From: an uncultured Verrucomicrobiae bacterium
GTDB lineage: Bacteria > Verrucomicrobiota > Verrucomicrobiia > Limisphaerales > Palsa-1400
NCBI GenBank assembly: GCA_963707025.1
Contig: CAVPOM010000016.1
Location: 124,047 to 188,046 of the forward strand
Length of the DNA stretch: 64,000 nucleotides
Direction of reading: 5' to 3'
Positions 33,103 through 53,804 of the stretch are shown here, in pieces (within the stretch, counting starts at the first letter, position 1; each line of letters opens with the position of its first letter). The position numbers and the translations under genes are program-made. The notes below the pieces were generated by a model. The model saw nothing but the letters and a program-made list of their open reading frames with translations. It did no database searches and was not told the origin of the DNA.

Positions 33103-33116
33103 GCGCTGCGGCAGTT

Positions 33117-35090: not shown

Positions 35091-35497
35091 TTGGTTTCCA
35101 GCCATCGGCGCCTTTCAGGATATGTTCCACCGTACAAGCCTTGGCCTGGTCATCGGTTAATTGCCGGGTCCGTTTGAAACGCGCGTCCGGGTTCGGTCTG
35201 ATTGAGAGCGCAAGTGAGGATCGCTTTTTCTGTATCCGCCCCGGCAAAGTGAAGGTGTCGCTTGGTTTTCGGCACGATGATCTGCCCCTGATACGTGCCG
35301 GGCTTGATGAAAATGACGAAGACGTTCGAGCCGTTGTCCGGCGCCGCGGCAAGGGCGGAGTGAAGATTGGTGCAGGCGCCTGAGCCGCCCTCGGCCACGA
35401 CGGCATCATAATTCGCGGCGGCCTTCCGCGAAATTCCCGCGCCCAACATCACCGCTGGAGTGGCCCGGCCCCGGACGCGCGAAGCGTGATTTCTCAT
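35083..35497 (-). pseudogene. Pectinesterase (CE8) remnant with large internal deletion
   Basis: N-terminus AVVAEGGSG...IFIKPGTY...LHFAG..TEKAILT and, in another frame, the C-terminus RQLTDDQAKACTVEHILKGADGWKP; catalytic core absent. Confidence 0.75.
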
Positions 35498-35518
35498 AAA
35501 GTTAAGATATAACTTTGG

Positions 35519-36784: not shown

Positions 36785-36859
36785 GCTAATGAAGTTAAAC
36801 GAATCATTCGCCTGTAGCAACTTCTAATAGGTTCGTGCCGGCACGTTCAGCGTTGTGCA

Positions 36860-37330
36860 TCATTTTCGCGGCCAGCGCCGTGCCATCCTGTATGACTTCC
36901 TCGGCATCCTCACAACCGTCGAAATTGACGGCGGCCGGGATAGGGGAACGGATTCTGGGAACAACTTCTGTGCATAATACGTCTCCTGCAAAGGGGCCCA
37001 GATGAGCTTGCGGCTGCGGATGAGATCGAATGCCTTGTCTTTCATGGCCGATTTCCAGAGGGCCTGTGTCGGGCCGGTTTTGGGTGGACTCATTGCTTCC
37101 ATGACATTTTGCCATGTGCGGCTTGCCGGGGTTGGGTAGCTGTGCTGCGAATAGACCTGGGCGATTTGCAGGTTCATTTCGACATGGCGGACGGCTTCGT
37201 TCCGGGCCTCAATCAGGCGCTGGGCTTCGCCGGCGTCATTGATTCCCAGGTTCTCCCGCTTTTTGGTGAGGGTGTCGAAACAGTAATAGGCATCGCGGAT
37301 TCCGCGATAGATGAGACGATAGCGCTTCAT
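36860..37330 (-). pseudogene. N-terminal fragment of a tyrosine integrase
   Basis: MKRYRLIYRG...YYCFDTLTKKRENLG...EAQRLIEARNEA...NLQIAQVY...RTWQNVM...AMKDKAFD resembles the N-terminal region of integrases in this lineage; no catalytic domain; starts 165 bp from the att core. Confidence 0.7.
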
Positions 37331-37426
37331 AACGGTTGATCGTAAATGAAGTGCGAGCGTTCGAGTTAGCGCGTACTGGCGTAACCCTGACAGCATTCTG
37401 GCATGATTCTGACATCATAGCCAGGG

Positions 37427-37708
37427 TGGTGTCCAAAATGGTGTCCGCCGCCGCTCTCTCCTCTCCAACCCATTGTGTTACAACACATTGGAAATGGAGC
37501 CAGTTGCCGGACTTGGGCTTTCCATTCCGTTCTGGCCTTCCACTCGGTAACTCCACCAAATGAAGAGGTTGCGAATAAAATTCGCACTGCATTTACGAGG
37601 GAGAATATGCCATGAATGCATCCAGAATTCAAGACAATTCCGTCACTATTTTTCAGAATTCGTCTTTACTCATTTGGTGTCCAAAATGGTGTCCATTTTG
37701 GTGTCCAA
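37427..37708. repeat. TGGTGTCC direct repeats on both sides of the att core (putative integrase arm-type sites)
   Basis: tggtgtccaaaatggtgtcc at 37427-37446 and tggtgtccaaaatggtgtccattttggtgtccaa at 37675-37708. Confidence 0.75.
37495..37515 (-). mobile_element. att core: 3' end of a tRNA (possibly tRNA-Thr)
   Basis: Minus strand reads CAAGT-CCGGC-AACTGGC-T-CCA: partial T-loop, 5-nt T-stem strand, 7-nt acceptor strand, discriminator, CCA; the 5' part of the tRNA is absent. Confidence 0.75.
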
Positions 37709-37901
37709 TCTCGGAGAGTCGGCAAACACGCCGACATTCACTTTCCTTTCCGCTCAAAGGAAAGGGCGCAGAGCGAAAAGGCCAGCGCGAGCGGAACTGG
37801 AGTCCATGAGGTCAAAGACCTTTGGCGCGGGTCTGGGCCGGCGTGAGGCCCGGCGCCGGGGTTTGGGGACGGCGCAGTCCCCAAGAAAACCAATCTGAGG
37901 T

Positions 37902-38541
37902 TTAGGAAGGTCGAATTCGTTGTCGAATTGAATTCAGGTGGTATTCGTCGGTTTCGAGGGATCGGCGCATCCGGGCCATTTCAACGCGGCCAATCAAGCA
38001 GGCCATTGTAGGTTGGTCAAACAGGATGGGACGTTCTGCGGAAAGGCACGCAATCAATTCAGGAAGTTTCAGTACCGGTGGGCCCAAGATTGGATTTGAA
38101 GTCGGCATCGGCAGTGAAAACAACCAGCGGAACGAAAGCGTCGGGGGACAGGCTCAAGAGCACCTGTAAAGCCTTTACATGAGCGTAGTTTTGGCGAATT
38201 GGGTTCTGAAATCGGCATTTCTTCCTGTAAATCACTTGAGTCCACTGCGGGTCGTCGGCACGACCGAAAATCCAGCCGCTGTAGTGCTTGGTTTCGATCA
38301 CGAAAATCCCGGTATCGGCCACCAGGATATGATCAATCTGCGTCGTTCCCCGCTGGTTTTCGAAAGTCACGTTGTTAAGCAAAACGTGGGGGCGTTGAAA
38401 ATTGCCGCCGATGGCGTTGGCAACCAAGGCTTCGCCGATGTTGCGGCGCAAATGTTGAAAACGGCCAGCAAGTAAGCCAATCGCCATGCCCCCCAGAAGC
38501 GTGAGGAGAGCCAACAATGCGGCAACGAAAATCGGAATCAC
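37902..38541 (-). pseudogene. NERD-domain nuclease-related protein, frameshift near 38085
   Basis: N-terminal TM; GEALV, TTQIDHILV..TGIFVIETKHYSGWIFG, FQNPIRQN; C-terminus continues in the 37902..38123 frame. Confidence 0.8.
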
Positions 38542-38679
38542 GGTGTATTCAATTTCAGGTTGAATTGCACCCTAACAAGCTGTGGCCGTCAAACTCAAAT
38601 CAGCGCCCTAAACAAGTCCCCAACGACAGAAAAACGGCTGAACCGCTGCCAATCCAGCCGGGTGGGTTTGTCCGGGCGG

Positions 38680-39081
38680 TCAATCCTCGTCCATTAGCAT
38701 GACAGTAATTGCAGGCTGCGGGTCATCAATGTCGAGGGGGCCGCAAACGGCGGTCAACCTGACAAGTCGAGGGGCGCGATTGTCATTGCGGACGTACAGC
38801 GCAACCGGCAAGCGGTCGCAACCGGGGCGGCTGCGGAGGACGGCAAACCGGGCCATTGTGATTATATCCCAGAGCCGGCCGGCTTCGTCCTGGCAGGCCA
38901 CGCCGGGCGGCACGGTCACGTAAGCATCATAAACGGCGCGGGTGAGAAAAACCGGAAAGCGGATTCCGGCTTCCTGCGCGGTTTTGGAAACCTCAATCTG
39001 CACGCCATCGGCGACGGCCTGTGATCGGGTGCAAGAATAGATGACTTCGCCAAAGGGCGAGTTTTCGTTGTCTGTGTTCAT
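38680..39081 (-). CDS. Conserved mobile-element protein (DUF6573-like)
   Basis: VIYSCTRSQAVADGVQIEV..AQEAGIRFPVFLT...QDEAGRLWDI...CGPLD...PAITVML. Confidence 0.75.
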   Translation of the reverse strand: MNTDNENSPFGEVIYSCTRSQAVADGVQIEVSKTAQEAGIRFPVFLTRAVYDAYVTVPPGVACQDEAGRLWDIITMARFAVLRSRPGCDRLPVALYVRNDNRAPRLVRLTAVCGPLDIDDPQPAITVMLMDED

Positions 39082-39087
39082 GGTGTT

Positions 39088-39309
39088 TTAGCGGTTAAGA
39101 ATGGGGACTTCCGATTGTGGAGAGATACGAACCAAACCGGGCTTGGGTTGAATACGGACACGCACGCCAAAAAGGGTGGTGAACTCGCGCGGCTGCTTGG
39201 TCACGGCGACAACGGCGGAACAATCGGTGACGCGGACAACGCGACACGGCTTGCCGTCCAGGCGGATGACATCGCCAGCGCGGAGTCGGAATGGAGAAAA
39301 GGTTTTCAT
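39088..39309 (-). CDS. Small hypothetical protein
   Basis: 73 aa MKTFSPFRLRAGDVIRLDGKPCRVVRV...; 4-nt overlap with the upstream ORF. Confidence 0.65.
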   Translation of the reverse strand: MKTFSPFRLRAGDVIRLDGKPCRVVRVTDCSAVVAVTKQPREFTTLFGVRVRIQPKPGLVRISPQSEVPILNR

Positions 39310-39497
39310 TTGGGCTTTTGAGAAGCAAACAAACGCGCTTGCGCGGACTCTGCGGCACGGCGGGCACGGTCTGCCTCGGCTCGTTCGCGGGCAAGACGAT
39401 CTCCGTCTAATCCGGTTTCGAGTGCGAGATTGAAGGTGTCCCCGGCAAACAAAAATTCGTGTTGCGGAATGGGCAAGCGGCGTCTGTTTCGTTTCAT
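39306..39497 (-). CDS. Small hypothetical protein
   Basis: MKRNRRRLPIPQHEFLFAGDTFNL...; tightly packed operon with RBS. Confidence 0.6.
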   Translation of the reverse strand: MKRNRRRLPIPQHEFLFAGDTFNLALETGLDGDRLARERAEADRARRAAESAQARLFASQKPK

Positions 39498-39511
39498 GGT
39501 GGGTTCGCCTT

Positions 39512-39898
39512 TCAAGCGGCTTTGGCGTCTGCCGGGAAGTAGGTCTGATATTTATCGCGGGGGTCGCGGTGACTGGCGGTGGAAAAGTGGCCGCAAGGGT
39601 GTTGCCAAGTCTGGCGTTTCCGATTCCAATGGAAACCAAACTGGGACAGGGCGGCGGTAATCTCCGGCGGCTGTTTATCCTCAAACTGAATCCAAACCCA
39701 CTTGCCCACTACCTGCGCCAATTCCCAAAAGCGGGGTGTCTCGTGATAAAGCATGTCCAAGAGTTTTTCGGTGGAAAGTCCCCGGTTTTGAAATCGGAGT
39801 CTGAAATCAATCTGCGGCACTTGGTTTTCAATGCGCTGTGCGGTCCGGTTCAAGAGCCCCGAATCCGAATTTGAAACTGAATTTGTGTTTGTTTTCAT
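39512..39898 (-). CDS. Hypothetical mobile-element protein
   Basis: 128 aa, VVGKWVWIQF...LSQFGFHWNRKRQTWQHPCG; first gene of the leftward operon. Confidence 0.7.
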   Translation of the reverse strand: MKTNTNSVSNSDSGLLNRTAQRIENQVPQIDFRLRFQNRGLSTEKLLDMLYHETPRFWELAQVVGKWVWIQFEDKQPPEITAALSQFGFHWNRKRQTWQHPCGHFSTASHRDPRDKYQTYFPADAKAA

Positions 39899-40115
39899 AG
39901 TGTTTTTTTTACAACTGCGCGTGCGTTCTCGGACTGTCGCCCTTCACGAAAAAGCCTGCGGCACAGGGCGGCCAGCGGGAGTAGTCTTTAGAGGGCACCG
40001 CGTCCGGCCCCCTGTGGAAAGCAGGCTAGTGGAGGGCGACAGGCTGGGAACGCACGGCAAAAAACACTTGAAAACAACCATGAGGCCGGCAGAAGGGTAA
40101 TTGCCTCACACTCTG

Positions 40116-40301
40116 CGCGGAGCGGCGCGGCTGGCGGGTTTCAATGCCAGGATTATGGCAGGCATGAAACATGACAGATGCGCGTCATGCCCTCACGCCC
40201 TGGGGGTCGTTGAAGCCGTGGGATCGTCGGCCCACTATCGCGGAGCGGCACGGCTGGCGGGCTTCATGCCAGGTTGACGGGCGGGCATGAAGCATGACAG
40301 A
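40116..40301. repeat. Two ~63-bp imperfect direct repeats, each containing a hairpin
   Basis: 40116-40178 and 40239-40301; stems gtttca(a)tgcc/ggcatgaaac and gcttcatgcc/ggcatgaagc. Confidence 0.8.
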
Positions 40302-40957
40302 GGAGCGTTGTCTGGATTCCCGGCTCGCTTGTGAATTTCAGAATCCGTGAGCGTAACGGAGCGTTTGGGCTGGCCGCCCGCGTAGGGGAAAGGGCCGTGG
40401 AGCGGACAGAACAAAAAGCGGAGTGGAGCGGCGGATTTAGAAATTCATCAAGGGAGCCTCCGTGGGGGAGCCAAGTCTTGCGTCTTTGGCGGCGTAGTCT
40501 TTGAAGGGGAAGCCAAAGCCGACAAGTCTTGGCAACAGGGTCGGGCGATGGGGTTCCCGGGCACATGATCTGCGTTTCGTGCGAAATCATCAGAAATACA
40601 CAGATTTCTGATAGATTGGCGTTTTTGCAGCGTATTTATAGTAAGGGGATTTGTGGCCCGCGCGCGGTGATGGCACTTCTCCTGTTCGGGGGGTTGGGCT
40701 GATGTGGGCCGGCAACTGGTCAACGGCAAGCGGGCATTACTAGACGAACGCAAGTAGCGATGAAAATGTTGCCAATTGGCAACATTCGCACAGGTGGTTG
40801 AACAGCAAGCACTTAAAGGCAGAAAAGCCGGAAAGAGAGGCCAAATCGTTATGATGCAACAAGAAGCCAGTGCCGCAGACATCCCTGCTCCCGTGAATCG
40901 TCCGGGGGTGACTTCGGATCAACCTCGGGAGGCGGAGCCACATGAAGGATGCCAAAT

Positions 40958-41323
40958 ATGGCGGGACGCCTTTTGAGAATCAAAGAATGGGGACAGATGG
41001 CACGGGAAGCCGATTTCCAACCAACGAAACTGGCGATGCTGTGCTTGGTCTCGGATCGTCAATTGCAACGGTTTTCCCTCCAACGATTTGGTTTGACCCC
41101 CGGCAGGTGGCTTCGCACCCTGCAATGTCAACTTGCCAAAGATTTGATCTCGCAAGGCTGGTCCACCAAGGCTGTCGCGGCTGAACTCAAGTTTGCCAGC
41201 GAATCCCATTTCTGCCACGCCTTCAAGAAACTGTCCGGCAGAACGCCGCAGTCTTTTGCTCCGGTCTATGCAAAGAGCCAAAAATTGTCGCTTTTAGACA
41301 ATAATGTCGCTAATGAGCAATAA
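40958..41323 (+). CDS. AraC-family regulator, DNA-binding domain only
   Basis: LAMLCLVSDRQLQRF...FGLTPGRWL...AKDLI...KAVAAELKFASESHFCHAFKKLSGRTP. Confidence 0.88.
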   Translation: MAGRLLRIKEWGQMAREADFQPTKLAMLCLVSDRQLQRFSLQRFGLTPGRWLRTLQCQLAKDLISQGWSTKAVAAELKFASESHFCHAFKKLSGRTPQSFAPVYAKSQKLSLLDNNVANEQ

Positions 41324-41369
41324 AAACTGTAAAAACTCCGTTGACAAGGATCGGGAAGAATGTTTGAAT
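41286..41369 (+). promoter_or_regulatory. 19-bp tandem repeat followed by a sigma70-type promoter
   Basis: tgtcgcttttagacaataa / tgtcgctaatgagcaataa (41286-41323); TTGACA (41341)-17 bp-TTGAAT with extended TG. Confidence 0.55.
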
Positions 41370-41417
41370 CACCATGTTCACCGAACATACGATTTCAGGC
41401 ATACGCGGCAGGTTTAA

Positions 41418-42725
41418 ATGAAACAAAGCCGCTTTACGCCCATGAATGCGGCCAACGATTGGTTTTACAGTTCTCGAGGAAGTTCATTTTCCTTGGAATT
41501 CGCTTTGAAAAATGCGAAATTCTATTTTTCTAGGATTGGCCATTTCAGATCGCTTGCAAGTTTGACAGCAAGCTTTGTTCGGGCCTGCTTGATGCTTCTG
41601 CTTGCATTGACCGCTGCCCACGCTCTCTCGGTTTCTGCTCAGGAACCGCGCTATGTTGAGATTTCCGCTGAGGTTGACATGGTCAGCTACGTTAAACGTG
41701 ACACAAATGGTGCGCCAATTGAAACGAAAAGAAGTTTTCAGTTCACATGTATCGTAGGGACAAACGAATGGCGAATCGAAACGGGTTTCTCACCATTTAT
41801 CCAGGATACATGGTATTATGACGGCACCGATGTCTATGAGGCCAACCGTACCACAAACGATGAAGCGTTTGTGCAGATGAAGCAGTTCTCCCAGAAGATG
41901 CGGCCAAGGCCGGCGCTTGCTGATCCAGAAATCATCAAATCAAACCTTACAATCCACGTTACACCGTCCTTGGGCGGCCATCCGCTTGGCGACCTTGGGG
42001 TAAACATCCCGTGGCTCGCTTACTGTTCCGGAAGCTATCTAAAGCAGCAAGCCAGGGTCATTCCCCTTCCGACGACTGTAATTAGCGAAGCGGAGGATGC
42101 CTTCGCCTATGTAGATAAAACAGTCACTTTTCCTGATCAATTCGGGCTGCCATATACTCTTGATCTTTTGACGTCCAAAGATCAATATCGTCGAGGTTTA
42201 GAGGATAAACGAATTTACCGGAACACTCCTGCTGCATTGGCTGCGCTGAATCCAGTTGTACCGGCAGATCCCGATGGAACCCTCAAGTTCCATTACGAAG
42301 TTAAACAGGTCACAAATTTTGATGGATGGCAATTCCCGACGCAGTTCAGTTACGTTGATTATCGGCCGGATCGCAAAGGGGGTTGGCATCCCTATGTGGC
42401 GGGTCTTGGTAAGATGCTCTCTATTCGAGAATGTGGACCGCCAGCATCGGTATTCGATACGAATTTGCAGCAGACGGTGCAGGACTTCCGCTTCAGGCAC
42501 CCAACTAAAGTCCTAGATGCTATCACTTATACCACCACGAATAGCGCGCTATGGCCAACAAACGACCCACGATTACAAGCGGAATTCAAACGGCTGGCGG
42601 TTTTTGCACCTCTTGAGCACGGCATATCCATTCGTAGGGGTAGGATAATTTTCGGGATTATGGTAGTCTTGTTGGCATTTGTGCCTCTTTTCTGGTCACG
42701 CTTAAAATCCCGAAACAGCAGATAA
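41418..42725 (+). CDS. Exported protein of unknown function with C-terminal membrane anchor (paralog 1); start uncertain
   Basis: Signal-like segment ending SVSA-QE; C-terminal IIFGIMVVLLAFVPLFW plus basic tail; colinear motifs shared with 43769..45466. Confidence 0.8.
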   Translation: MKQSRFTPMNAANDWFYSSRGSSFSLEFALKNAKFYFSRIGHFRSLASLTASFVRACLMLLLALTAAHALSVSAQEPRYVEISAEVDMVSYVKRDTNGAPIETKRSFQFTCIVGTNEWRIETGFSPFIQDTWYYDGTDVYEANRTTNDEAFVQMKQFSQKMRPRPALADPEIIKSNLTIHVTPSLGGHPLGDLGVNIPWLAYCSGSYLKQQARVIPLPTTVISEAEDAFAYVDKTVTFPDQFGLPYTLDLLTSKDQYRRGLEDKRIYRNTPAALAALNPVVPADPDGTLKFHYEVKQVTNFDGWQFPTQFSYVDYRPDRKGGWHPYVAGLGKMLSIRECGPPASVFDTNLQQTVQDFRFRHPTKVLDAITYTTTNSALWPTNDPRLQAEFKRLAVFAPLEHGISIRRGRIIFGIMVVLLAFVPLFWSRLKSRNSR

Positions 42726-42746
42726 ATTGCAACAATACTAGTACTT

Positions 42747-43133
42747 ATGAAAACAACAAAGAAAACAAAAGTAGTTATCGGAATAGTGTTAGCCACTCTG
42801 TGCATCGCTCCGGCCAAAATGTTGCTTGCACAGGGACCATACGAATGGTCAACATGTTATTGGCCAGGCAGTCCAGACAGCTGTGTTATCGCTGTTCAAA
42901 ATGAGCCAGAATATGACCCCTGTGAAGCGCCAGATGGATGTACTGTTGCCACCCCTCCCACAACCCAATCATATTGCGTTTACTGGAGCCAGGACACTTG
43001 GTGTCCGGACGGCCACAAAGGAATATTGTTGGGTCAATTGTGGTATGTGGGAACTTGCGGTGGTGGTGCTTGTACTTGCCAGTACGACCCCAACAACGGA
43101 AAACAATCCGACCCCATAACGCTCTGCCCTTAG
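42747..43133 (+). CDS. Secreted cysteine-rich small protein (10 Cys in the predicted mature part)
   Basis: MKTTKKTKVVIGIVLATLCIAPAKMLLA leader; contains GTCGGGACTCQ. Confidence 0.75.
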   Translation: MKTTKKTKVVIGIVLATLCIAPAKMLLAQGPYEWSTCYWPGSPDSCVIAVQNEPEYDPCEAPDGCTVATPPTTQSYCVYWSQDTWCPDGHKGILLGQLWYVGTCGGGACTCQYDPNNGKQSDPITLCP

Positions 43134-43148
43134 TTCGCAGAAGAGCCC

Positions 43149-43272
43149 AGAGCGTGTTTTGAAAATCGTTTTCATTGTAGGAGCCGGCGCGTGAGGAGGC
43201 TCAAATTTCCGGGAGCCCATGGGGAAGACAGATCCTCCTCACGTTGGCACTTACGTTCTCAAAACAGGCTCT
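43149..43272. repeat. MITE/REP-like palindromic element
   Basis: Terminal inverted repeats agagcgtgttttgaaaa / ttctcaaaacaggctct enclosing gtaggagccggcgcgtgaggagg / cctcctcacgttggcacttac. Confidence 0.7.
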
Positions 43273-43326
43273 CACACCGGTTCTGCGACTTTTCGGGTCG
43301 GCGATTTTCGAGGATTCAGTAAAAGT

Positions 43327-43776
43327 ATGCTGTTCAAGTTTTTCATTCGTTCAGGAGGTGGCCTGTTATTAATTACCGGGATCGCAAAGGTCATTAGCGC
43401 ATCTGGGAAGCAGGCAATATTATACTCCCATGATCCCATCCTCGGGTTTACCTATCGCTATGTATTCATCCTATTAGGTTTGGTTGAAATCAGCATCGCA
43501 TTGTATTGTTTTCTCGGAACACGTCGCTTGCTCCAGGCCGGAATATTAGGCTGGCTTTCAGCTTGCTTTTTTCTTTATAGGACCGAACTTGGCTGGTTGA
43601 AGTATGCGCGACCGTGCCCGTGCTTAGGGAGCCTGACTGCCGCTCTTGCAATCCCTGAAAGAACTGCCGACCTGATTCTGATAGCGGTTCTTTTCTACAT
43701 GCTGATCGGTAGTTGTATTGCGTTCCTGACGCTGGCGGAGAACACCAAGCCACCTCTTAATCATACTTGTGATTAA
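43327..43776 (+). CDS. MauE/DoxX-like membrane protein
   Basis: LLLITGIAKV, GLVEISIA, PCPCLG (cf. the CxCxG motif of MauE), four TM segments. Confidence 0.75.
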   Translation: MLFKFFIRSGGGLLLITGIAKVISASGKQAILYSHDPILGFTYRYVFILLGLVEISIALYCFLGTRRLLQAGILGWLSACFFLYRTELGWLKYARPCPCLGSLTAALAIPERTADLILIAVLFYMLIGSCIAFLTLAENTKPPLNHTCD

Positions 43777-45466
43777 TATTACTAACATGCAAGACCCCCT
43801 CAAGCGCTTAGTTGTTACACAAAGAGATGAGGGTTCTCGGTGCGACCCAAAAGGAGTAGCTTCCGCACTTCATGTTTGTGCCGGCACAATATTGTTAATA
43901 TACGGCGCTTCACATTTCGGGTTTTTAACGCTTCGCGATCATAATCACCAGCTTCACAATTTAGTTTTCCCGATTATCAACAACTGGACACTTTATCTAA
44001 TCGTGGCAGCAATCGAGACAATTCTCGGAGTTGCTTGTTTTATCCGACGTGGCCACGAGGCAATTAGCATTACAATTGTAACATTTGTCGGAGTTATGAT
44101 TTGGTACAGATGGGCATTTTATTACGCAGGAGGAATACGTTGCAGCTGCACCGGTCTTCTAGGCAGACTGTTCCATTTTACACCCGCTCAAGAAAGGACT
44201 TTTCCTGTACTTACATTGATGTTGCTCATCGTGAGCGCATCACCATTCATCCTGAGAATATGTAAACGGATGTGCCGACTCTATACATTGGTGCTATTTG
44301 CGGTGTCGATGACTATGACTCTTGGACAATTAGACGCCAAGGCCGGAGACACTATTGCAATTCGTGGCCTGTTGGATTGGCAGGACTACGATTTCGTTAC
44401 GGCCAAACCCTCAACTAGGTATTATAAGCACTATGTATTTACAACGATGATTTCGGGGAAGTCTTGGAGCATATGCGTCACGAACATGAGTCGGCCTAGA
44501 TGGTGGGCGCAACTTGTTTATGATGGAAGCAGTACATTTATAATTCAACCTGCTACCAAATATGGGAGTCTTGCGACTAATGAAGATCAAGTGCCGGAAA
44601 CCAATTTGAATGAGGTTCTTGTAGAAGGATCGGCAAGATTCCTTCCCGAGTCAGATGAAATGCAATTAAGCATCGGATGGTTTACTTACGGTTTCTCGAA
44701 GTGGCTTTTAGGCACTAACACGAATGGATTCGTGGAGTTGCCGTTGCCAAGCGGCAATGTGCGTGAGAATCCGAGATCTTTTGGCTATAAATGGCTCGTC
44801 AACTTTTCCGATGGTGGGCTATATGCGAGTAATTGTCAGGTGGTGCGAGACCACGCTCTTGACAAAAGGGAGGCAGATGAATTATTCCGATCAGAGTTGA
44901 ATTACCCAGATACTTTGGCGGATTACAATGATTACCAGACTTTGCTGCGATTTAAAAGGGATACTCCTGATGGCTTCGTCAAACTTAAGTACAAATGTAC
45001 AAAATGGGCGGATACCAGCTTGGGAGAGGTGCCAAGTGAGTCGAAACTTGAGGTATACTGGTGGGATGAGAGACGTGGAATTGGGCGTTATCCATTCCAC
45101 GTTGTCACTTTGAAAGCTACAAACGTAGACATTCGCCCACCTGTAACGAGCCTTTTGCCAGAAGTTGAGGTGTTAACGAAGGTTGAGGATTACCGCTATA
45201 AACGGGTAAATTCCTCCAGAATTTTCAAGTATGCCGAGTATAATTTAGAGCCCGGCGATTTGTGGAAATCTGGCGATGATCCGATACTTGTAGCCAGGGC
45301 TGCTGAGTATCTTGAGCATGGCCGAAAGTATACACATTGGGCCAACAATGGAAGAATGTGGACGAGTTGGCTTCTTTTAGCGGTTTTACTCGCACCAGCC
45401 GTAATTGTGCTAGTAAGAAGGAAACAAAAACAAAGAAATCAGGAGTTAAACAATGAAAAAGTATAA
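43769..45466 (+). CDS. MauE-like domain fused to an exported membrane-anchored domain (paralog 2)
   Basis: N-terminal TM bundle with AAIETILG and RCSCTG; C-terminal region colinear with 41418..42725; C-terminal TM plus RRKQK. Confidence 0.8.
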   Translation: MINITNMQDPLKRLVVTQRDEGSRCDPKGVASALHVCAGTILLIYGASHFGFLTLRDHNHQLHNLVFPIINNWTLYLIVAAIETILGVACFIRRGHEAISITIVTFVGVMIWYRWAFYYAGGIRCSCTGLLGRLFHFTPAQERTFPVLTLMLLIVSASPFILRICKRMCRLYTLVLFAVSMTMTLGQLDAKAGDTIAIRGLLDWQDYDFVTAKPSTRYYKHYVFTTMISGKSWSICVTNMSRPRWWAQLVYDGSSTFIIQPATKYGSLATNEDQVPETNLNEVLVEGSARFLPESDEMQLSIGWFTYGFSKWLLGTNTNGFVELPLPSGNVRENPRSFGYKWLVNFSDGGLYASNCQVVRDHALDKREADELFRSELNYPDTLADYNDYQTLLRFKRDTPDGFVKLKYKCTKWADTSLGEVPSESKLEVYWWDERRGIGRYPFHVVTLKATNVDIRPPVTSLLPEVEVLTKVEDYRYKRVNSSRIFKYAEYNLEPGDLWKSGDDPILVARAAEYLEHGRKYTHWANNGRMWTSWLLLAVLLAPAVIVLVRRKQKQRNQELNNEKV

Positions 45467-45686
45467 GAAATATATCTCGATAGCTGCTATGATTATAGGA
45501 TTGATGGCGGGTGGTTCTGTTGCTATGGCTTCACGTCAATGTAATGTGACGATAACTTACACTTGCGTGTATAATGATTGCTTCAGCTTTAGTGGAGGTG
45601 GAATTATATATTGCAGTAGCGGCACTACGTGTTCCTGTCAGCCGACTGATACAGAGAATACTGATTGCGGTTGCTTTTTATCGTAA
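45453..45686 (+). CDS. Secreted cysteine-rich peptide (8 Cys in ~51 mature residues)
   Basis: AGGAG RBS; MKKYKKYISIAAMIIGLMAGGSVAMA leader; YCSSGTTCSCQ...DCGC. Confidence 0.78.
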   Translation: MKKYKKYISIAAMIIGLMAGGSVAMASRQCNVTITYTCVYNDCFSFSGGGIIYCSSGTTCSCQPTDTENTDCGCFLS

Positions 45687-45780
45687 TTGGAGCTACGCGC
45701 GACTGTGGGGTTGTTGTTTGTAACCAAGATGGCTGTAGTTTTTGTCCTGCTCGTCATCTAAGGTTGGGTAGTTTGGCTGC

Positions 45781-46354
45781 TTGCCGCCGGCTGAACTGTT
45801 CCAAGTGCTCGTCCAGGGGCGCCGGGAGCCCGCTGAGGCTCGACGTGGTGATCTCGTGCCTGCACAACTCCTGCGTGATCGCCGCCACTTTGCGCGTCGA
45901 GACTGCTTGCACATACATCTGCGCGAGCGCCGCAACCAACGCCTTATCGCTCCGCTGATATTGCTCGAACTCCTGCGTGCTGAAATGCCCCGCCAGATGC
46001 TGCGGCACCCGCCGCAGGATCGGGCCGACCCGCGTAATCAAGCGCCGCCGGTAATATACGCGCTGCGGTAGGCCGCCCGCTGGGCGCTCCGCTCATACTT
46101 GCCGGCCTGCAAGCATTCCTCCATCTCCAATTCCAGGATCCCTTGCACCGCTTCCTGCACCGCCGGGGCCAAAAAAATCCTTCTGCTCCGTCAAAAAGGG
46201 GACCTCATTTCCGCGACATCCAGGGTTGCTTTCTTCGCGTCCGTCACTTTGCTCTTTGGCGTCATGGTTCTGCCTTTCTTTTAGTGGTTTCCTAACATGC
46301 CCCAGGGGCCACCATGACCCTCCTCTTTTTTGCACAACTTTTAAAGCACTAGCC
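45781..46354 (-). mobile_element. Degenerate, truncated IS256-family element
   Basis: Fragments LELEMEECLQAGKYERS, TRVGPI..RVP, F....FEQYQRSDKALVAALAQMYVQAVSTRKV..ITQELC; left end ggctagtgctttaaaagttgtgcaaaa; stops and frameshifts, no DDE core. Confidence 0.82.
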
Positions 46355-46447: not shown

Positions 46448-46933
46448 ATGAGCACTTTGCTTGATTGTATGAATGCGATTCGGAAACCTTTGAAAACGGA
46501 GGGTGCCAACCCTGGCTTGGCGCTTCTGATAAAGCGTTATTTTCGCTTTGGAGTTGTCGGAGGCAGCGGCATCGCGGTGGACATGGCCGCTTTGTTCATT
46601 CTGGGTAACCCCAGAATGCTTGGGTTGGATTTGTCCTTGAGCAAGGCCCTGGCGGCAGAGATTGCCATTCTCTGGAATTTCACTTGGAATGAACTCTGGA
46701 CATTTCGCGATCTGGCCGTGAATAATTCATGCGCGGCTCGAACATTGCGGTTTGGAAAGTTTAACCTCATATGTTTGGCTGGCATCGGCTTGAGTGTGCT
46801 GCTGCTCAATGTGGAAACTCGCTGTTTTCAGATGAATATGTATCTTGGAAATCTGGTGGCGATTTTAATCGTGAGTTTTTGGAATTTTGGATTGAATCTG
46901 AGGTTCGGATGGAGGCCGGGCGGCAAGCCATGA
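46448..46933 (+). CDS. GtrA-family flippase-like protein
   Basis: RFGVVGGSGIAVD, AAEIAILWNFTWNELWTF, WNFGLN. Confidence 0.85.
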   Translation: MSTLLDCMNAIRKPLKTEGANPGLALLIKRYFRFGVVGGSGIAVDMAALFILGNPRMLGLDLSLSKALAAEIAILWNFTWNELWTFRDLAVNNSCAARTLRFGKFNLICLAGIGLSVLLLNVETRCFQMNMYLGNLVAILIVSFWNFGLNLRFGWRPGGKP

Positions 46934-48171
46934 TCACACTATCGCGCCACGATCAACATCTTTATGGATGCCTGATTTTGTTCAAAGGTTTGTATCTCGC
47001 ACTCCTTTCTGCCGCTTTGCTTTTGTGGCCAACGTCTAGAGAGGACACCATTTTCCATTCTGCCGGGGCGAACTGGACAGTGGAGGGTTATCTGAAGTTC
47101 GGAAGCCATTTTGACACATGGGACGCAGAGCATTACTTGTTTTTGAGCCGGGAAGGATACAAAAGCGGTCTCGCGGCGTGTGCGTTTTATCCGCTGTATC
47201 CGATGGTCATCCGGTGGGTTTCAGCAGCCATGGGAGGCCACGAGGTTTTGACTGCCATGCTGCTGGCGAATCTATTTTCGTTGGCGGCTTTCCTGCTTTT
47301 TTTTCACCTGGTCGCCCGGCGTTATGGCGAAAAGGTGGCCCTTCTGGCGCTGGCGCTCTTGCTGGTTTTTCCCGGCTCGCTGTTCTACCAATTTATTTAT
47401 ACGGAGTCGCTGTTTTTTCTTTTACTGATGCTCTTTTGTTACGCCTTGGAGCTGGAACATCGTTCGCTGGCGCTGGTGACGGGTTTCTTGCTGCCGCTGA
47501 CACGGGCGGTGGGCATTTTCTGCGTCTTTCCGCTTTTGTGGCTTCTGTTTTTCAGGTCGCCGCCGGCCTGGTGGGTGGCACTGGCCGACCGAAAGAACTG
47601 GGCCGCCAGGATCGCACGGTTTGTAGGGCCGCGTTCCGGCGATTTGCCGGTATTGAATTCCCCACGTTGGAGTGGGGCGGGCGCTGTGTGGGTGTTTCTA
47701 GCTCCATTGTTGGGATGGGCCGCTTACTTTCTGCTTATGCAGAAATGGACGGGTAATGCCTTCGAGGGGATTGAGGCCCAGAAACAGTTTCATGCGCAAT
47801 CCATCCATAATCTGTTTGACCCGGTTGGGTTTGTGACGCAGTTGTTCAATGCAACCGAATGGCACGCATTCAGAGGATCGGTGCTGGATCGTTGCGTTTT
47901 TATTCTGGTGATCTACTGTTTTCCGCTGATCTGGAAACTGGACAAAAGCTGGGGCCTATGGGCGTTTTTCCTCGGGGTGGTGCCAGCGGTAAGCGGCGGG
48001 TTCGCCTCCTACACGCGGTTTGCCTCGGTGGTGTTTCCGCTGTTTGTGGCTCTGGCAGTGTTCTTGAGCAAGTCTGGGATGCGTTGGTGGCGCTGGCTGT
48101 TCCTGGCGACCTTCGTCACCTTGCATTTGATATTGGTCTGGCGATTTGTGAATTATAGGTGGGCCGGATGA
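46930..48171 (+). CDS. GT-C glycosyltransferase (PIG-V-like mannosyltransferase)
   Basis: WDAEHYL...GY, AFYPLYP, FPGSLF...YTESLF, LTRAVG, RFASVVFP; multi-TM. Confidence 0.82.
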   Translation: MITLSRHDQHLYGCLILFKGLYLALLSAALLLWPTSREDTIFHSAGANWTVEGYLKFGSHFDTWDAEHYLFLSREGYKSGLAACAFYPLYPMVIRWVSAAMGGHEVLTAMLLANLFSLAAFLLFFHLVARRYGEKVALLALALLLVFPGSLFYQFIYTESLFFLLLMLFCYALELEHRSLALVTGFLLPLTRAVGIFCVFPLLWLLFFRSPPAWWVALADRKNWAARIARFVGPRSGDLPVLNSPRWSGAGAVWVFLAPLLGWAAYFLLMQKWTGNAFEGIEAQKQFHAQSIHNLFDPVGFVTQLFNATEWHAFRGSVLDRCVFILVIYCFPLIWKLDKSWGLWAFFLGVVPAVSGGFASYTRFASVVFPLFVALAVFLSKSGMRWWRWLFLATFVTLHLILVWRFVNYRWAG

Positions 48172-49469
48172 TGAACATGGACTCTCTCAATCATGGCCGT
48201 GCGGCCTTGTGGACCTATGTTGCCAATTGGGTCGCGCGGCATCGGTTTGCAGTGGCCTATTTCATCGTGGTGCTGAGTTGGCTGCCATTCCTGGCCACTC
48301 TTGACGGATTCGCGCAGGGAGACATCTCGATTTACAGGAATGATGCCGACAGCCTGATGCAAGGCAAGATGCCTTACCGTGATACGATGGTGGAATACCC
48401 GCCTTACGCCATCCCCATTTTTGTCCTGCCCGGGGTGTTTGGCGTTGGCAACTACGTGTATGGCTTCATGATGCTGGCCGCTTTGTGTGACTTGGCCATC
48501 AGGGGAGGGTTATTTTGGGGCGGAATGCGGAACACCAAGTCATTAGGTTCCCTGCTGCCGGTTGTGTGCTATTGCGCCTCCGTTCCGTTTCTCCGGTTCT
48601 TCTTCTTTCAGCGGTTTGATCTTTGGCCGGCGCTGATCTGTGTGGCGGCGCTGTTGCTGTTCTGCGCCGACAAACCCGGATGGTCGGGCCTTGCGATCGC
48701 CATCGGTATTGGCGTCAAGGTTTATCCCGCTGTTTTCGTGCCGCCACTTTTTGTTTTGGCGTTGCGCCAGGGGAAAGCGCTGCGGTTTTCAGCCGGTTTG
48801 ATCGCCGGACTGTCGCCGATTCTATTGCTGAGTTTTGTTCTGCCGTGGTGGCGCTTTGCGCAATTCCAAGGGGCTCGTGGACTGCAATGCGAATCCCTCG
48901 TGGCGTCGCTTATATGGGGACTAAACCACCTTGGCTTGACACATGCCTCGTGGGTGGGGGTCAAGCGGTGGACAGAGGTTCATGGTCCCATGGCTACGGC
49001 GCTGCTGCCGTGGGCCAGGGCGCTGTTCATTGCGGCGGTGGTTTTTTCTGTCGCAATAGCCTCCTGTGCCGCCGCCCGTTGCCCGAAACCTTCCATAGGG
49101 CGGGTGGCGCGTTTGCTGCTGGGGCCTCTGCTCGCGTTTGTGGTGTTCAATCAAGTTCTCAGTCCGCAGTTTATGATTTGGCTGCTGCCGCTGGCGGCGG
49201 TTGCGACATTGGAGGGAAATCCGTGGATCGTCCTGGGCATTCCACTGGCGACAATGTTGACGCCGGTCATTTTCCCGTCCTTTGGTGCAGACTATAGCAG
49301 AGGTTTGAATTCTCTTGAAACGATGGTTCTGGTCACGCGGAATTTAATTCTCGTGGCGGTTTGGTGGCTGCTGGTGAGGGAACAATGGCGAATATGCCGA
49401 CTCGGAAACACGGATAAAATGCAAACCGGCGTCGGTGCAAATTGCTCCGTTGGTTCCACTCAAGCTTGA
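48168..49469 (+). CDS. GT-C glycosyltransferase (GT87 / DUF2029-like)
   Basis: GDISIY, PYRD..VEYPP, RFDLWP, GVKVYP, RGLQCES, VLSPQFMIWL. Confidence 0.82.
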   Translation: MMNMDSLNHGRAALWTYVANWVARHRFAVAYFIVVLSWLPFLATLDGFAQGDISIYRNDADSLMQGKMPYRDTMVEYPPYAIPIFVLPGVFGVGNYVYGFMMLAALCDLAIRGGLFWGGMRNTKSLGSLLPVVCYCASVPFLRFFFFQRFDLWPALICVAALLLFCADKPGWSGLAIAIGIGVKVYPAVFVPPLFVLALRQGKALRFSAGLIAGLSPILLLSFVLPWWRFAQFQGARGLQCESLVASLIWGLNHLGLTHASWVGVKRWTEVHGPMATALLPWARALFIAAVVFSVAIASCAAARCPKPSIGRVARLLLGPLLAFVVFNQVLSPQFMIWLLPLAAVATLEGNPWIVLGIPLATMLTPVIFPSFGADYSRGLNSLETMVLVTRNLILVAVWWLLVREQWRICRLGNTDKMQTGVGANCSVGSTQA

Positions 49470-49516
49470 CTGCCTTGTTTGACCTGAGATTGATTATGCT
49501 GATTTGCCAACAGGAT

Positions 49517-50668
49517 ATGAAGTCCGGCAACGCCAGAACGGCGACGTTTGTGATTCCGTGTCTGAACGAAGCGGAGACGTTGCGTGAATTCTTAATGGAG
49601 TGCAAAACGGTCTTTGCGGAAGATGCAAACACGGAGTGGGCAATTCTTGTGGCAGACAACGGCTCGACTGATGTATCCATTCAAATTGCCCAGGAGGAAG
49701 ACGTCGCCGTCCTTCGAGTGCCCGCACAAGGGTACGGCTTTTCCGTTCATGCTGGAATTCTCGCGGCTAAATCGGAATATGTGGTTTTTGCCGATGCCGA
49801 TGGAACTTATGCTCCCTCCGATGCGGTCAGGCTTCTTGATGGGATTAGGTGTCATGCGGCGGATTTGGCAATCGGCTCCCGAATTCGCGGCACGATAGAA
49901 GCTGGCGCTATGCCGTGGCTCCACAGGCACATCGGAACACCGGCGCTTTCGCTTCTCATTCGCAAATTATACCGGGTGCCGATCACTGATTGTAACTGTG
50001 GCATCCGTTGTGTCAGGCGAAGTGCTTATGAAAAGTGGAACCTCTCCGGCCAGGGAATGGAATATGCGTCGGCGATGCTGATCCGCGCGGCAACGGCGGG
50101 CGCGAAGGTCATCGAAGTGCCCGTCACTTTGCGGCGTGGCAAGCCAAAGCGGGCTCCCCATCTCAAGACATGGAGAGACGGAATGAGGCATTTGTTGACC
50201 ATTCTGGCCGGCGCTCCCGGAGTATTCTGGCATCCAGGATTGGCTTTGCTTGGGCTGTCGCTGGGTCTGGTGCTGCCGTCATTTTGGGGGCCTTTTCGTG
50301 TTGTCGGCCACGTCCGTTTTTTTGGACTGCACACGGAAGCCATTTCTATTGTAATCGGTTTTTATGGGGCTGCGTTTTTGAGTTTGGCCCTGTCCCTTTA
50401 CGCCCAGGCGCCAAAGCTCAAGCCGGTGCCGAAGCTTGCTGCGTCCCTGACCCTATTGAGAGAGGATATTTTGTTTTGGGGCCTGATCGCATTTTTCGGT
50501 GCGTTCGTAACAGGCGGGGGGTTCGCGCTGTGGCAATGGTCCAAAGTCAATTACTCAGACTTCGATTTTCTGAAATTTACGCTCGGCATGATCTATTTCA
50601 CATTGATACCCGCAACCATCGCTTTGGGTGTTTTCCAATCCCATTTGCAGAAACGGGCGCTGCTTTAA
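49517..50668 (+). CDS. GT2 polyprenol-phosphate glycosyltransferase with C-terminal TM segments
   Basis: VIPCLNEAE, VADNGSTD, GYG, FADADGTY, GSRIRGTIEAGAMPWLHR, HLKTWRDGMRHL. Confidence 0.88.
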   Translation: MKSGNARTATFVIPCLNEAETLREFLMECKTVFAEDANTEWAILVADNGSTDVSIQIAQEEDVAVLRVPAQGYGFSVHAGILAAKSEYVVFADADGTYAPSDAVRLLDGIRCHAADLAIGSRIRGTIEAGAMPWLHRHIGTPALSLLIRKLYRVPITDCNCGIRCVRRSAYEKWNLSGQGMEYASAMLIRAATAGAKVIEVPVTLRRGKPKRAPHLKTWRDGMRHLLTILAGAPGVFWHPGLALLGLSLGLVLPSFWGPFRVVGHVRFFGLHTEAISIVIGFYGAAFLSLALSLYAQAPKLKPVPKLAASLTLLREDILFWGLIAFFGAFVTGGGFALWQWSKVNYSDFDFLKFTLGMIYFTLIPATIALGVFQSHLQKRALL

Positions 50669-50713
50669 ATGCCAACGACGGGTCCACGGCGTGGTGTCGA
50701 AAACGTCGCGAAG

Positions 50714-52167
50714 CTATAGACTCAAAAGCAGCTTTAACGGATGCCAAGAGGTGTGGTGCCAAATATCGTCGGGAGGAAGAATGGCTGCTGTTATCGCAAT
50801 CACGCCTGAAATGTAGATCAAAATCATCAAAAGTAAGCGAACCAACGTTGGAATGATGCCCCAGGTACCTGTTTGACGCCTATGCCAAAGGCAAGAGCCA
50901 GCCATGGGACATAGGGCACCCAATAGCGCGGGCCATAACAAAACTGCCCGGTGTAAGGAAGAATCATATAGACCGCCGCCACCGGCAAAATGCCACCGGC
51001 CACCATTTTTAACAGCATCTGTTGCTCAGGGGCGTTTGGATTGCGATGCAGGAAAGCGAGAAGCAAGAAACAGAATGCAGCAAGCGACCACGGCAGAAAG
51101 AGCAGGACGCCTGTTTCAGCCTCAAGGAAAGTGCGCCATACACGGGTCAGGTCGAACCCGAAACCCGTGTCGCGGATTGATGCGTGGCCGAGTAGCAGAT
51201 GGTTAAAGAGACTGGTGAGGGCAATCGAAATCACGCTGGCCGCCGCAAAGAATCCTGCTTCACGCCGCTTTTTGCAGAGGAAAAGCAAAAATATCCATGC
51301 GGGAAAAATCAATACGAATGCTTCGGACTGCATCGCCGCAACGGCAAGGAAAAGAGCCGAAATCAAAAACAAGTTGTCCAGCAAAGCCCACAGTGCCACC
51401 AGCAGGAGAAGTCCCATAAAGGTGGCCGGGAACAACTGATGGGAATACACAAGCCAGGGACTGGCGAAATAAAGCAGCGCGGTCACCGACAGGGCGCCTC
51501 TTGATCCCAAGCCAATCTTGAGAGCGCACAGGTAAGTAAAAATGCCGGTCAGCCACGAGAGAAATATTTGCGCGTAAATGGCCCGCGCCTCCAATTTATC
51601 CATGGTACTGCCAAAGAGTTCGAGGATTAGTGCCAAGGTTCCGGGGTAGGGGACAGGGTGTTTCGGCAATTCCTTGTAATCCGTGTTTATTGGGGTGTAA
51701 TCGGGGAATTGAGTGTTAATGCGTTTGAATCCGACATAAGCAGGATTTGTGGATGCGCGACCCAACGGTTTGGACATGTCAAATACCTGCTCCCACAGCC
51801 GGCTTTCTCCGGTTCGCAAATCCTGGATAAGCGTGTGATGGTCGAGGCGGCTTCCTTTGAATCGGCGGCCGGCGTTTGCGTGACCGAGCGAAACGTCGCG
51901 ATAGTTATTGCGAAGATCAATGTCCCCGTCCAACAGCATGCTGGAAATGATGATTAAATAATGCGGCTCATCACCGCTGAAAACTTCCGGCTCGCTGGAT
52001 TTCCATCGCATCTGATTTGGATCATAAAAGTGTGTCGAGAAAAAGAATAAAACAAACAGCGACGCGGAAAAGAACGCCAGCGCAGGCCAGGCATGGAGCT
52101 GCCTGGTGTTCAAGGCATTGCGAACTGAATCCAAGAGCTTCAAAACGCGAAAAATGCTTGCTGACAT
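50714..52167 (-). CDS. GT-C-like multi-pass membrane protein; probable frameshift near 50870
   Basis: SGDEPHYL...S...DGDIDLRNNY, GVLLFLPW, CYGPRYWVP; a further TM segment lies in the 50714..50941 frame. Confidence 0.72.
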
Positions 52168-52714: not shown

Positions 52715-53446
52715 ATGCCCTTCCCGCCCTGCATCAGAAAACTCGGGAAGTCCGGCGTATCCGCGCGCGGCTTCACCCTGATCGAATTGCTGGTCGTCAT
52801 CGCCATCATCGCCATTCTGGCCGCGCTGTTGCTGCCCGCTTTGAGCAGCGCCAAGGACACGGCCGTGCGCACCACAGACGTCAACAATATAAAGCAGATG
52901 GTCCTGGCCCTGGACATGTATGGCAACGACAATCAGGACAACTCCCCCTGGTCCAACTGGCTGGCCGGCGATGCCACCAACCGCCAAGGCTGGCTTTATA
53001 CCATCAATCCCCAGGCCTCGGGCACCGCACAGTTCGACCCCCGCACCGGCGCGTTGTGGCCGGTCCTACAGAACAGCAACATGTATTTCTGCCCGCGGGA
53101 TAAACTCACCCCGACCTTTAAGCTGCGGGGCCAGCAATGCTCGACTTACGTGATGAATGGAGCGATTAACGGCTATAACTTGGACATTTATCCCCCTATC
53201 AAATTAAACCAGATGCCGCCACGCGGCATTGTCTTTTGGGAGCCGGACGAAAATGACATCAACAATTTTAATGACGGTGCCAGCAGCCCTAATGAGGGCT
53301 TGACCGCCCGGCATTTGCAGGGCGGTGTTTATGGGGAGTTCGATGGCGCGGTGGCCTTCATGGAACAGAGCCTTTGGAACAACGGCTGTGCCCAGTCCAC
53401 CGCAAACCAGTTTTGGTGTTACCCTGACAGCCCCAACGGACGGTAA
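52715..53446 (+). CDS. Prepilin-type N-terminal cleavage/methylation protein (H-X9-DG type)
   Basis: [47 protein letters not shown]. Confidence 0.92.
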
Positions 53447-53804
53447 GACGGCAGCCGCAGTCTCCGGTGTTGTGAGGCGGAAGGTGCTGAGGCTAAATCA
53501 GCCGCTGGCGCCGGCTGGTCGGCAGGCCGTCCAGGGAATACATGCCGAGAAAGTGCGAGAAATGCACCGGCTCACCCAGTCAATGTGTCGTTGGAAGGTG
53601 CTTCCGGGGACTCATTGGCGTTCGATAATTGGCCGGTAAACTGTTGCCGCGTTTTGATGTTTTCAGTGGGTTTCGTTTGTAAGCCGTTGGTTCTCAACGC
53701 CATATCTATTTCCATAAATCATTTCGCATGGACAGCCAATGTCCAACTGGTTTTGGCAAGATTGCGGCAGGATTGGGAAATTGAGCGAAGAGAAAGAAAG
53801 AAAC

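Follow-up and report, generated by a model that had tools for sequence, protein, structure and literature searches.

Gene content of the cassette locus

We analysed a stretch of 64,000 nucleotides (nt; hereafter, the window) from an uncultured Verrucomicrobiae bacterium (contig CAVPOM010000016.1), which carries a repeated gene cassette composed of an exported protein with a likely C-terminal membrane anchor (L), a small, likely exported Cys-rich protein (S) and a MauE-like membrane protein. A first-pass annotation of this DNA had described two units downstream of an AraC-type regulator, each made of an anchored protein followed by a small protein with 10 or 8 Cys residues, and we confirmed the six corresponding open reading frames (ORFs), namely, araC, L1, S1, mauE-like, L2 and S2, all on the plus strand (Table 1). 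S1 contains 11 Cys residues, one of which lies inside the signal region, leaving 10 in the mature protein, and S2 contains 8. Inspection by eye of the hydropathy profiles indicated a basic n-region followed by a hydrophobic stretch at the N terminus of both S1 and S2, and a single hydrophobic helix followed by a basic tail at the C terminus of both L1 and L2. The true start of L1 is probably at 41562 or 41592, and that of the stand-alone MauE-like ORF at 43327.

The two MauE-like CxCxG domains reported by the same annotation, one free and one fused to L2, were also recovered, since both match Pfam MauE (PF07291) weakly (21.3 and 17.6 bits compared to a curated cut-off of 27) and carry a C-x-C motif (CPCLG and CSCTG, respectively). 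The AT richness that it had noticed corresponds to a GC content of 46.8% across the cassette region, compared to 57.7% for the whole window, with a GC content at third codon positions of 0.37 to 0.57 in the cassette genes and 0.72 in a host GH28 gene. The description of the locus as a duplicated module needs a qualification. L2 belongs to the L1 family over its full length, although remotely (hhalign probability 92.5%, E value 4.9e-7, 293 columns), with a BLASTP identity to L1 of only 25% over 204 amino acids (aa), and S2 gave no match to the S1-family profile (probability 0.6%). It follows that the architecture is repeated but does not derive from a recent duplication; as judged from the sequences, the two units are anciently diverged.

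Table 1. Position of the cassette genes, of the flanking features and of the further cassettes of the same genome
Feature	Position	Strand	Evidence or remark
Left flank, remnant of a multi-copy integrative element (integrase-like fragment, DUF6573, NERD)	36860..40939		Pfam
AraC-family regulator, short, helix-turn-helix (HTH) only, 124 aa	40949..41323	+	Pfam HTH_18, E 4.5e-16
TGTCGC direct repeat (41286, 41305) and TTGACA hexamer (41341)	41286..41346	+	Candidate AraC site, candidate -35 element
L1, exported protein with predicted LolA-like fold, C-terminal membrane anchor	41418..42725	+	Model and fold matches
S1, exported acidic mini-protein, 10 mature Cys	42747..43133	+	Family with conserved Cys skeleton
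Stand-alone MauE-like membrane protein, CPC loop, conserved Lys (first transmembrane helix, TM1) and Glu (TM2)	43219..43776	+	Pfam MauE, E 3.6e-4, below cut-off; alignment with 14 cassette homologues
L2, MauE-like domain (CSC) fused to divergent L domain, C-terminal anchor	43769..45466	+	
S2, exported 77-aa mini-protein, 8 Cys	45453..45686	+	Overlaps L2 stop
Mutator-family (IS256-type) transposase fragment	45693..46041	-	Directly after S2; Pfam Transposase_mut, E 4.5e-19 on 45754-46038
Glycosylation cluster: GtrA-type flippase, GT-C-like membrane proteins, GT87, GT2	46448..52167		Pfam: GtrA E 1.5e-22, GT87 E 8.7e-8, GT2 E 1.5e-20, PMT_2 weak (E 0.09)
Prepilin-type (N-methylation) protein	52715..53446	+	Pfam N_methyl, E 1.3e-7
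Further L-S-MauE cassette	Contig C7, 520459-523352	-	Insertion sequence (IS)-like fragment between mauE and L; GT-C-like genes follow
Further L-S-MauE cassette	Contig C7, 530821-533002	+	GT-C-like genes follow

Coupling of anchored L, S and MauE

The first-pass annotation had proposed, as a check, that homologues of the large proteins should be followed by Cys-rich small ORFs and MauE genes, and this turned out to be the case for anchored homologues and not for unanchored ones. The 128 loci examined comprised 16 recovered by the family search, the full set of 32 located on genome contigs and the 80 best of 194 metagenomic ones, and they were collapsed to 87 clusters at 80% identity, excluding six with a cut C terminus and those with less than 500 nt downstream; since the genome-contig and metagenome scans required the motif WLA[FY]CS[GA]x[YF]L, these loci sample close relatives of L1. 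By a profile-free rule, a Cys-rich small ORF lies directly behind L in 23 of the 29 anchored clusters (two of which come from the genome of the window) and in 1 of the 48 unanchored ones, and the former count rises to 25 once the S profile is added. Furthermore, among the clusters with adequate flanks, MauE is found within 1.5 kilobases (kb) or fused in 14/18 anchored and 0/27 unanchored cases. The P value of the comparison between anchored and unanchored clusters (4e-13) overstates its significance, because related genomes are not independent. In the genome of the window as a whole, the rule of an anchored ORF followed by a Cys-rich ORF picked out 6 of 240 anchored ORFs, four of which are the cassettes, whereas the other two, on contig C6, were discarded as wrong-frame artefacts.

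The reverse analysis was conducted with a profile of 15 cassette MauE proteins, which matches 122 of 401 genomes of the order (about 30%), with up to 9 matches each. Among 60 MauE regions hand-picked from 150 listed of the 302 matches, favouring long flanks and with some genomes represented twice, at least one pair of an anchored protein and S occurs in 35, for a total of 53 pairs, and S directly follows 37 of the 45 ORFs longer than 300 aa that match the L profile. Fifteen of these regions contain two to four pairs, so that the tandem layout of the window is typical. The S start often overlaps the L stop (offset of -3), and the units within one array are mostly not each other's closest relatives.

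The similarities among L and among S proteins co-vary (Mantel rho 0.21, P 5e-4), and the nearest L corresponds to the nearest S in 23 of 74 cases; in addition, the two nearest relatives of L2 precede S genes of 76 and 61 aa, which are, alongside S2, the shortest of the set. Both observations fit a cognate pairing. A complex prediction for L1 and S1, both given as alignments, scored 0.01 compared to a mark of 0.32, with an uncertain fold for the partner, and counts neither for nor against their binding. Overall, these data support the existence of a conserved module in which each anchored protein goes together with MauE and with a small exported protein rich in Cys, and the unanchored L homologues constitute a separate, orphan class.

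Family and predicted fold of the L proteins

A search with L1 retrieved 500 relatives at an E value of at most 1e-3 among representatives clustered at 50% identity, and those with a named source are mostly from Verrucomicrobiota. No match to L1 was found in Pfam or NCBIfam, nor to any LolA sequence family, and the PDB, queried by sequence using the profiles of L and S, yielded best E values of only 0.45 and 0.44; the ESM Atlas returned unnamed Verrucomicrobiota clusters, with LolA-clan families only as leads below 0.9. The AlphaFold2 (AF2) model of L1, built from 144 sequences, reached a predicted local distance difference test (pLDDT) score of 95.8 and a predicted template modelling (pTM) score of 0.92. 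The best Foldseek matches to this model belong to the LolA3/LolA superfamily (E values from 4e-6 to 2e-4; 4.4e-6 for LolA3 of P. gingivalis), and the top rows of the VIA search are equally LolA-like (Z of 9.7, root mean square deviation of 3.6, 166 to 168 aligned residues, 5 to 10% identity). Thus, the model confidently points to a LolA-superfamily fold for L1, i.e., an unclosed beta-barrel with a helical lid, a feature that had escaped the first-pass annotation. It had likewise missed the swapping of alleles, as well as the glycosylation and pilin-like genes associated with the cassette, which are described below.

The recurrence of the MauE-L fusion is indicated by the presence of an N-terminal CxCxG MauE-like domain on 7 of 175 L homologues, and others in this set are fused to extracytoplasmic function (ECF) sigma, BlaR1/M56 or YceI domains. 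As a separate observation, the LolA-like domain without anchor, either fused to one of these domains or as an orphan, could be noticed at loci L018, L019, L112 and L080 and in proteins P0052, P0108, P0131 and P0144, which suggests a second role of the unanchored LolA-like domain as a periplasmic sensor domain. We also considered L as a redox enzyme of the CxxC type and rejected this possibility: both Cys residues conserved in the family are replaced in L2, and a CxxC of any kind occurs in only 4 of 77 anchored L proteins.

Features of the S mini-proteins

The sequence statistics were obtained on 76 non-redundant S proteins after a crude trimming of the signal, and they outline a hypervariable set, with a median pairwise identity of 25%. 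The mature Cys count is even in 55 of the 76 (P 6e-5), Thr and Ser are abundant (9.9% and 7.6%), and Trp residues range from 0 to 8 per protein. The net charge is negative, with a median of -4 and only 4 of the 76 positive (-9 in S1 and -4 in S2). In defensin-like antimicrobial peptides, the mature peptide is net cationic; a cationic defensin was therefore rejected. The suggestion that these peptides are defensin-like was not supported, nor were the toxin and signal roles suggested by the first-pass annotation. No Pfam toxin or bacteriocin family was matched by S1, S2 or 23 members of the S1 family, and neither prepilin nor anchor motifs were found in S.

The relatives of S1 share a common skeleton of about 10 Cys residues. 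However, of 78 S proteins, the iterated S profile joined only 34, and S2 and the C7 allele stayed outside throughout, so that the S proteins do not form one established family. Only four proteins, S1 itself among them, were retrieved by a word-based homologue search that started from the S alignment, and the ESM Atlas returned nothing for S1. The AF2 model of S1, mostly composed of beta strands, is of moderate confidence (pLDDT of 72, pTM of 0.54); the fold searches with it were empty (best Foldseek E value of 3.2; no VIA row with Z of at least 2 among 48,161 chains), which, given this pLDDT, does not demonstrate a new fold.

MauE-like proteins and disulfide chemistry

It has been reported that two MauE proteins complement a dsbB deletion in a way that depends on their CXC motif, with conserved Lys and Glu residues, and the authors propose a thioredoxin intermediate (bioRxiv preprint 10.64898/2026.03.05.709764). 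In the alignment of the stand-alone cassette MauE, the residues K21, E54, C97 and C99 are nearly invariant, and the CXC motif is located between TM3 and TM4. The fused domain of L2 keeps the CxC and the Glu, but, as judged by eye, a His apparently replaces the conserved Lys. Several cassette homologues exceed the Pfam cut-off (32.6 to 43.7 bits), indicating that the cassette MauE is a divergent branch of the family.

The genome, which is 88% complete, also encodes a canonical MauE on contig C15 and a VKOR-DsbA-like fusion on contig C4; it follows that the cassette MauE copies are additional to these. Neither DsbB nor MauA (PF02975) was found in this 88%-complete genome, the latter search having a weak control, since the control genomes likewise gave no match. 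S1, S2 and 23 members of the S1 family did not match the MauA family in Pfam either. The thioredoxin family had no match among 124 of the 153 candidate neighbouring ORFs (at least 140 aa) of 22 loci, the others being mostly S, MauE or overlapping frames. Likewise, no MauD-type thioredoxin occurs among the window ORFs scanned. A methylamine dehydrogenase cluster was rejected as a reading of the locus. At two further loci, MauE-like domains are fused to C-terminal repeated CxxC motifs resembling zinc ribbons (L049, 577-1302; L051, 1517-2275).

Allelic exchange and mobile context

One of the cassettes on contig C7 is flanked by sequences matching positions 40552-40939 (90%) and 46469-60300 (79 to 97%) of the window, while the content of the slot between them differs, consisting of another L, another S and another MauE together with sulfotransferase-like and GT-C-like genes (named by eye). 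The same island thus carries a different L-S-MauE unit in the same slot, which is allelic exchange. The four L domains of the genome share about 21 to 22% identity or do not align significantly, whereas the stand-alone MauE copies share 42 to 47%.

Segments of the left flank recur at 78 to 94% identity on contigs C1, C2, C7, C9, C14 and C17, and the copy on C7 lies beside relaxase-like and integrase-like ORFs (named by eye). Regarding the element at 36860-40560, we could notice that its copies on C1, C2, C9 and C14 carry unrelated cargo, i.e., an RHS-like gene, a methylase-like gene with a long partner ORF, and IS elements (by eye). On the other side of the cassette, positions 53642-60300 match the end of C7 at 97% and positions 57084-64000 match the end of C9 at 98.9%; the repeats at 53642-64000 represent either a multi-copy element or an assembly break, and the ORFs therein had no Pfam or NCBIfam match where scanned.

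Comparison with known systems

In the DsbL/DsbI-AssT and BdbA/BdbB-sublancin systems, the housekeeping disulfide machinery is supplemented by an extra machine whose genes lie next to that of its client. These machines rely on a thioredoxin-fold oxidase and serve a single conserved client, whereas the clients of the cassette form an exchangeable repertoire, each with a partner of its own. Polymorphic toxin-immunity cassettes consist of variable cognate pairs in arrays, exchanged at one slot and associated with mobile DNA. The L-S-MauE cassette shares with them the variable pairs swapped at one locus, as in the C7 island with its shared flanks, but no toxin domain or delivery scaffold was found, and the partner is large and located upstream.

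With the LolA/LolB/RseB-MucB superfamily (LolA3, 9tp6; NE2245, 3buu; DUF1329, 4z48), L1 has in common the predicted unclosed beta-barrel cradle with a helical lid. LolA carriers are, however, soluble periplasmic proteins with lipobox-bearing cargo, whereas L is hypervariable, about 330 aa long with an extra C-terminal part, and C-terminally anchored, and its small partner is usually not a lipoprotein, a lipobox-like motif being present in 4 of the 76 S proteins and in neither S1 nor S2. The passages on LolA-like proteins in the Lipocone preprint concern other operons and were discarded as a match.

The closest precedent for the MauE component is the DsbB-like oxidase described in the preprint 10.64898/2026.03.05.709764, with which the cassette protein shares a small multi-helix membrane architecture, the CXC loop and the conserved Lys and Glu. 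The MauE of the preprint is a generalist thought to use a thioredoxin partner, whereas the cassette MauE belongs to a divergent multi-copy subfamily, with Leu or Thr in place of the Phe that follows the CXC, is embedded in cassettes where no thioredoxin gene was detected, and is sometimes fused to the LolA-like partner; such cassettes are not mentioned in its abstract, results and discussion. The same source reports mauE-mauD-mauA clusters, in which a MauE gene lies beside a small disulfide-rich exported client (10.64898/2026.03.05.709764). The cassette is alike in this arrangement but differs in the absence of a MauD-like thioredoxin, in the hypervariability of the clients and in the presence of a LolA-like partner. 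Our literature searches, with subscription journals largely outside their coverage, found no description of such cassettes, and no record combining MauE and LolA. We found no known system with this parts list, and the module, whose function we infer, is apparently undescribed; the initial proposal of an undescribed module with MauE as the likely source of disulfides is in this part supported by the L-S-MauE coupling and by the preprint.

Possible function of the cassette

The hypothesis that we favour, although we give it slightly less than an even chance, is that the L-S pairs and MauE constitute a dedicated oxidative-folding line for variable envelope or secreted mini-proteins, each with its cognate holder. 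S would likely be exported through Sec, and the anchored L of the same pair, with its predicted LolA-like fold, would likely retain it on the outer side of the inner membrane, while a MauE-type oxidase would likely provide the 4 to 5 disulfides of S; the product would be a variable envelope or secreted recognition protein. The disulfide may still travel between MauE and S by way of a DsbA-like domain of the host, that of the VKOR fusion on C4. Among these steps, the oxidation of S by the cassette MauE copies is highly probable, and the binding of L to its cognate S is fairly probable. Given this binding, L would with somewhat better than even probability be a non-redox folding holder rather than a receptor or an immunity protein. 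It is possible, but rather doubtful, that the product is afterwards decorated or displayed with the help of the GT-C cluster and the pilin-like protein.

Several points weigh against a folding line of this kind. Four of the 29 anchored L clusters have no S by either test, 25 of the 60 MauE regions have no pair by the rules applied, and behind some L proteins there are two S genes. The co-variation of L and S is also expected from the simple co-inheritance of adjacent genes, and the related genomes in which it was observed are not independent. The LolA-like match of the L1 model is distant (5 to 10% identity, TM-score of about 0.3), and a common fold proves no function; moreover, the unanchored L domain, alone or fused to ECF sigma or BlaR1/M56, fits a ligand-sensing role. 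Neither MauE domain of the cassette reaches the Pfam cut-off, and in the fused copy the conserved Lys seems to be missing. The MauE of the preprint worked in Escherichia coli, which has DsbA (10.64898/2026.03.05.709764); with a thioredoxin proposed as intermediate, L need not touch the redox path. All the functional steps rest on genomic context and models.

If the folding line were real, MauE, only just shown to be a disulfide-forming enzyme, would gain a large natural class of clients, the LolA fold would acquire a new job, and a possible route would emerge to the correct pairing of 4 to 7 disulfides without a cassette-encoded isomerase. Repertoires of disulfide-rich mini-proteins are usually associated with animals, plants and fungi; here, in a widespread bacterial order, cassette-type MauE typically comes with its own variable client and partner. 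The system is compact and could be reconstituted in E. coli, making cognate specificity directly testable, and the mini-proteins could be a new source of stable scaffolds. It is also possible to hypothesize, although we consider it somewhat unlikely, that Verrucomicrobia keep a polymorphic, exchangeable library of disulfide-stapled proteins, in which MauE would oxidise the client directly and without thioredoxin, a cognate anchored LolA-fold chaperone would template the disulfide pattern, and the products would be glycosylated and displayed or released as molecules of identity, defence or competition.

Among the alternatives, L could act as a carrier or receptor tethered to the membrane, for which S would be the ligand or plug, e.g., a signal or kin-recognition peptide, in a stable cognate complex like that of RseB/MucB with a peptide, MauE serving only to fold S. 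The one-to-one pairing and the L-S co-variation would agree with this possibility, as would the presence of MucB and RseB among the fold matches of L1 (Z of 5.8 to 5.9), the unanchored L domains on ECF sigma and BlaR1/M56, which could be sensors, and the upstream AraC gene with its candidate site. However, anchored L has a short cytoplasmic tail and no signalling domain, and the sensor-fused forms are precisely those without S and MauE, so that we regard a receptor-ligand pair as unlikely.

The hypervariable pairs in tandem arrays of diverged units, their replacement in one slot and the mobile-element context resemble conflict loci and, with the patchy carriage in the order (122/401 genomes), recall a polymorphic toxin-immunity array, where S would be a disulfide-stapled antibacterial peptide and L the cognate inner-membrane immunity protein. 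This interpretation is rendered improbable by the acidic character of S and its lack of matches to Pfam toxin or bacteriocin families, by the size and upstream position of L, immunity genes being usually located 3' of the toxin, and by the fact that no dedicated exporter or protease recurs among the neighbours scanned.

S could otherwise belong, as a variable subunit or adhesin, to a glycosylated surface structure that also contains the pilin-like protein, for evasion of phages or predators or for attachment, with L as an assembly factor. Pilin-like relatives occur in 28 of 52 MauE regions (about 8.4 kb) compared to 6.7% of random windows, are co-oriented with MauE in 30 of 34 cases and lie within 300 nt of it in 13; in one case (locus L197, 3236-4570, minus strand), the MauE profile and the pilin-like query hit the same ORF, representing a MauE-prepilin fusion. 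Relatives of the glycosylation genes are found in 16 of the 52 regions compared to 1.5% of random windows, the background rates for both gene types being drawn from the genome of the window only, and relatives of the glycosylation genes of the window and of C7 lie near 7/14 anchored and 1/28 unanchored L loci; the Thr/Ser richness of S also speaks for this possibility. Whatever the role of S, the glycosylation genes are counted in the wider system, and the prepilin-type protein is a probable part of it. On the other hand, pilin-like genes are abundant (72 in the genome of the window) and not clearly enriched near anchored relatives of L1 (4/14, compared to 5/28 for unanchored ones), and S has no prepilin or anchor motif, which makes its role as a surface subunit quite improbable.

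Finally, the LolA-like fold predicted for L and the high Cys content of S might suggest a lipoprotein or metal-binding protein with a LolA-like lipid carrier, MauE being a reductant or incidental, but the rarity of the lipobox-like motif, absent from S1 and S2, together with the activity of MauE as an oxidase and the even Cys counts, both of which favour disulfides, makes this extremely improbable.

Regulation, expression and further neighbours

AraC-like proteins occur in 10 of the 60 MauE regions and, among loci with at least 2.5 kb upstream, at 3/13 anchored-L and 0/25 unanchored-L loci. A pair of TGTCGC repeats with a spacing of 20 to 21 nt and at most two mismatches is found where araC ends (3') in 7 of 18 loci, compared to 0.8% of shuffles, the motif having been chosen by eye from these same loci; the spacing in the window is 19, and therefore the window is not among the seven. 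The promoter scan made no call at 41286-41346, and the promoter and terminator scan stayed at or below the level of shuffled sequences. A TTGTC-N7-GACAA palindrome at the araC end was rejected, as it is not conserved.

A weak hint that the cassette is expressed comes from one metatranscriptome run, where two short contigs with 99 to 100% identity cover positions 41404-41582 (5' region of L1) and 42737-42955 (first half of S1); the lack of cover over most of the cassette in that run carries no weight, and the library may have contained DNA.

At other loci, an S9-type hydrolase gene adjoins the cassette in 4 of 22 cases and an O-antigen-ligase-like gene (Wzy_C) in 2 (loci L060, L101, L104 and L051). 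Elsewhere in the window, positions 12386-17032 and 17692-20643 encode a 1549-aa Ser/Thr kinase with WD40 repeats, which has many paralogues in the genome, and an NHL-repeat/Ig protein, and positions 26276-36820 harbour an ordinary pectin-degradation cluster, with a pectate lyase and three GH28-like genes.

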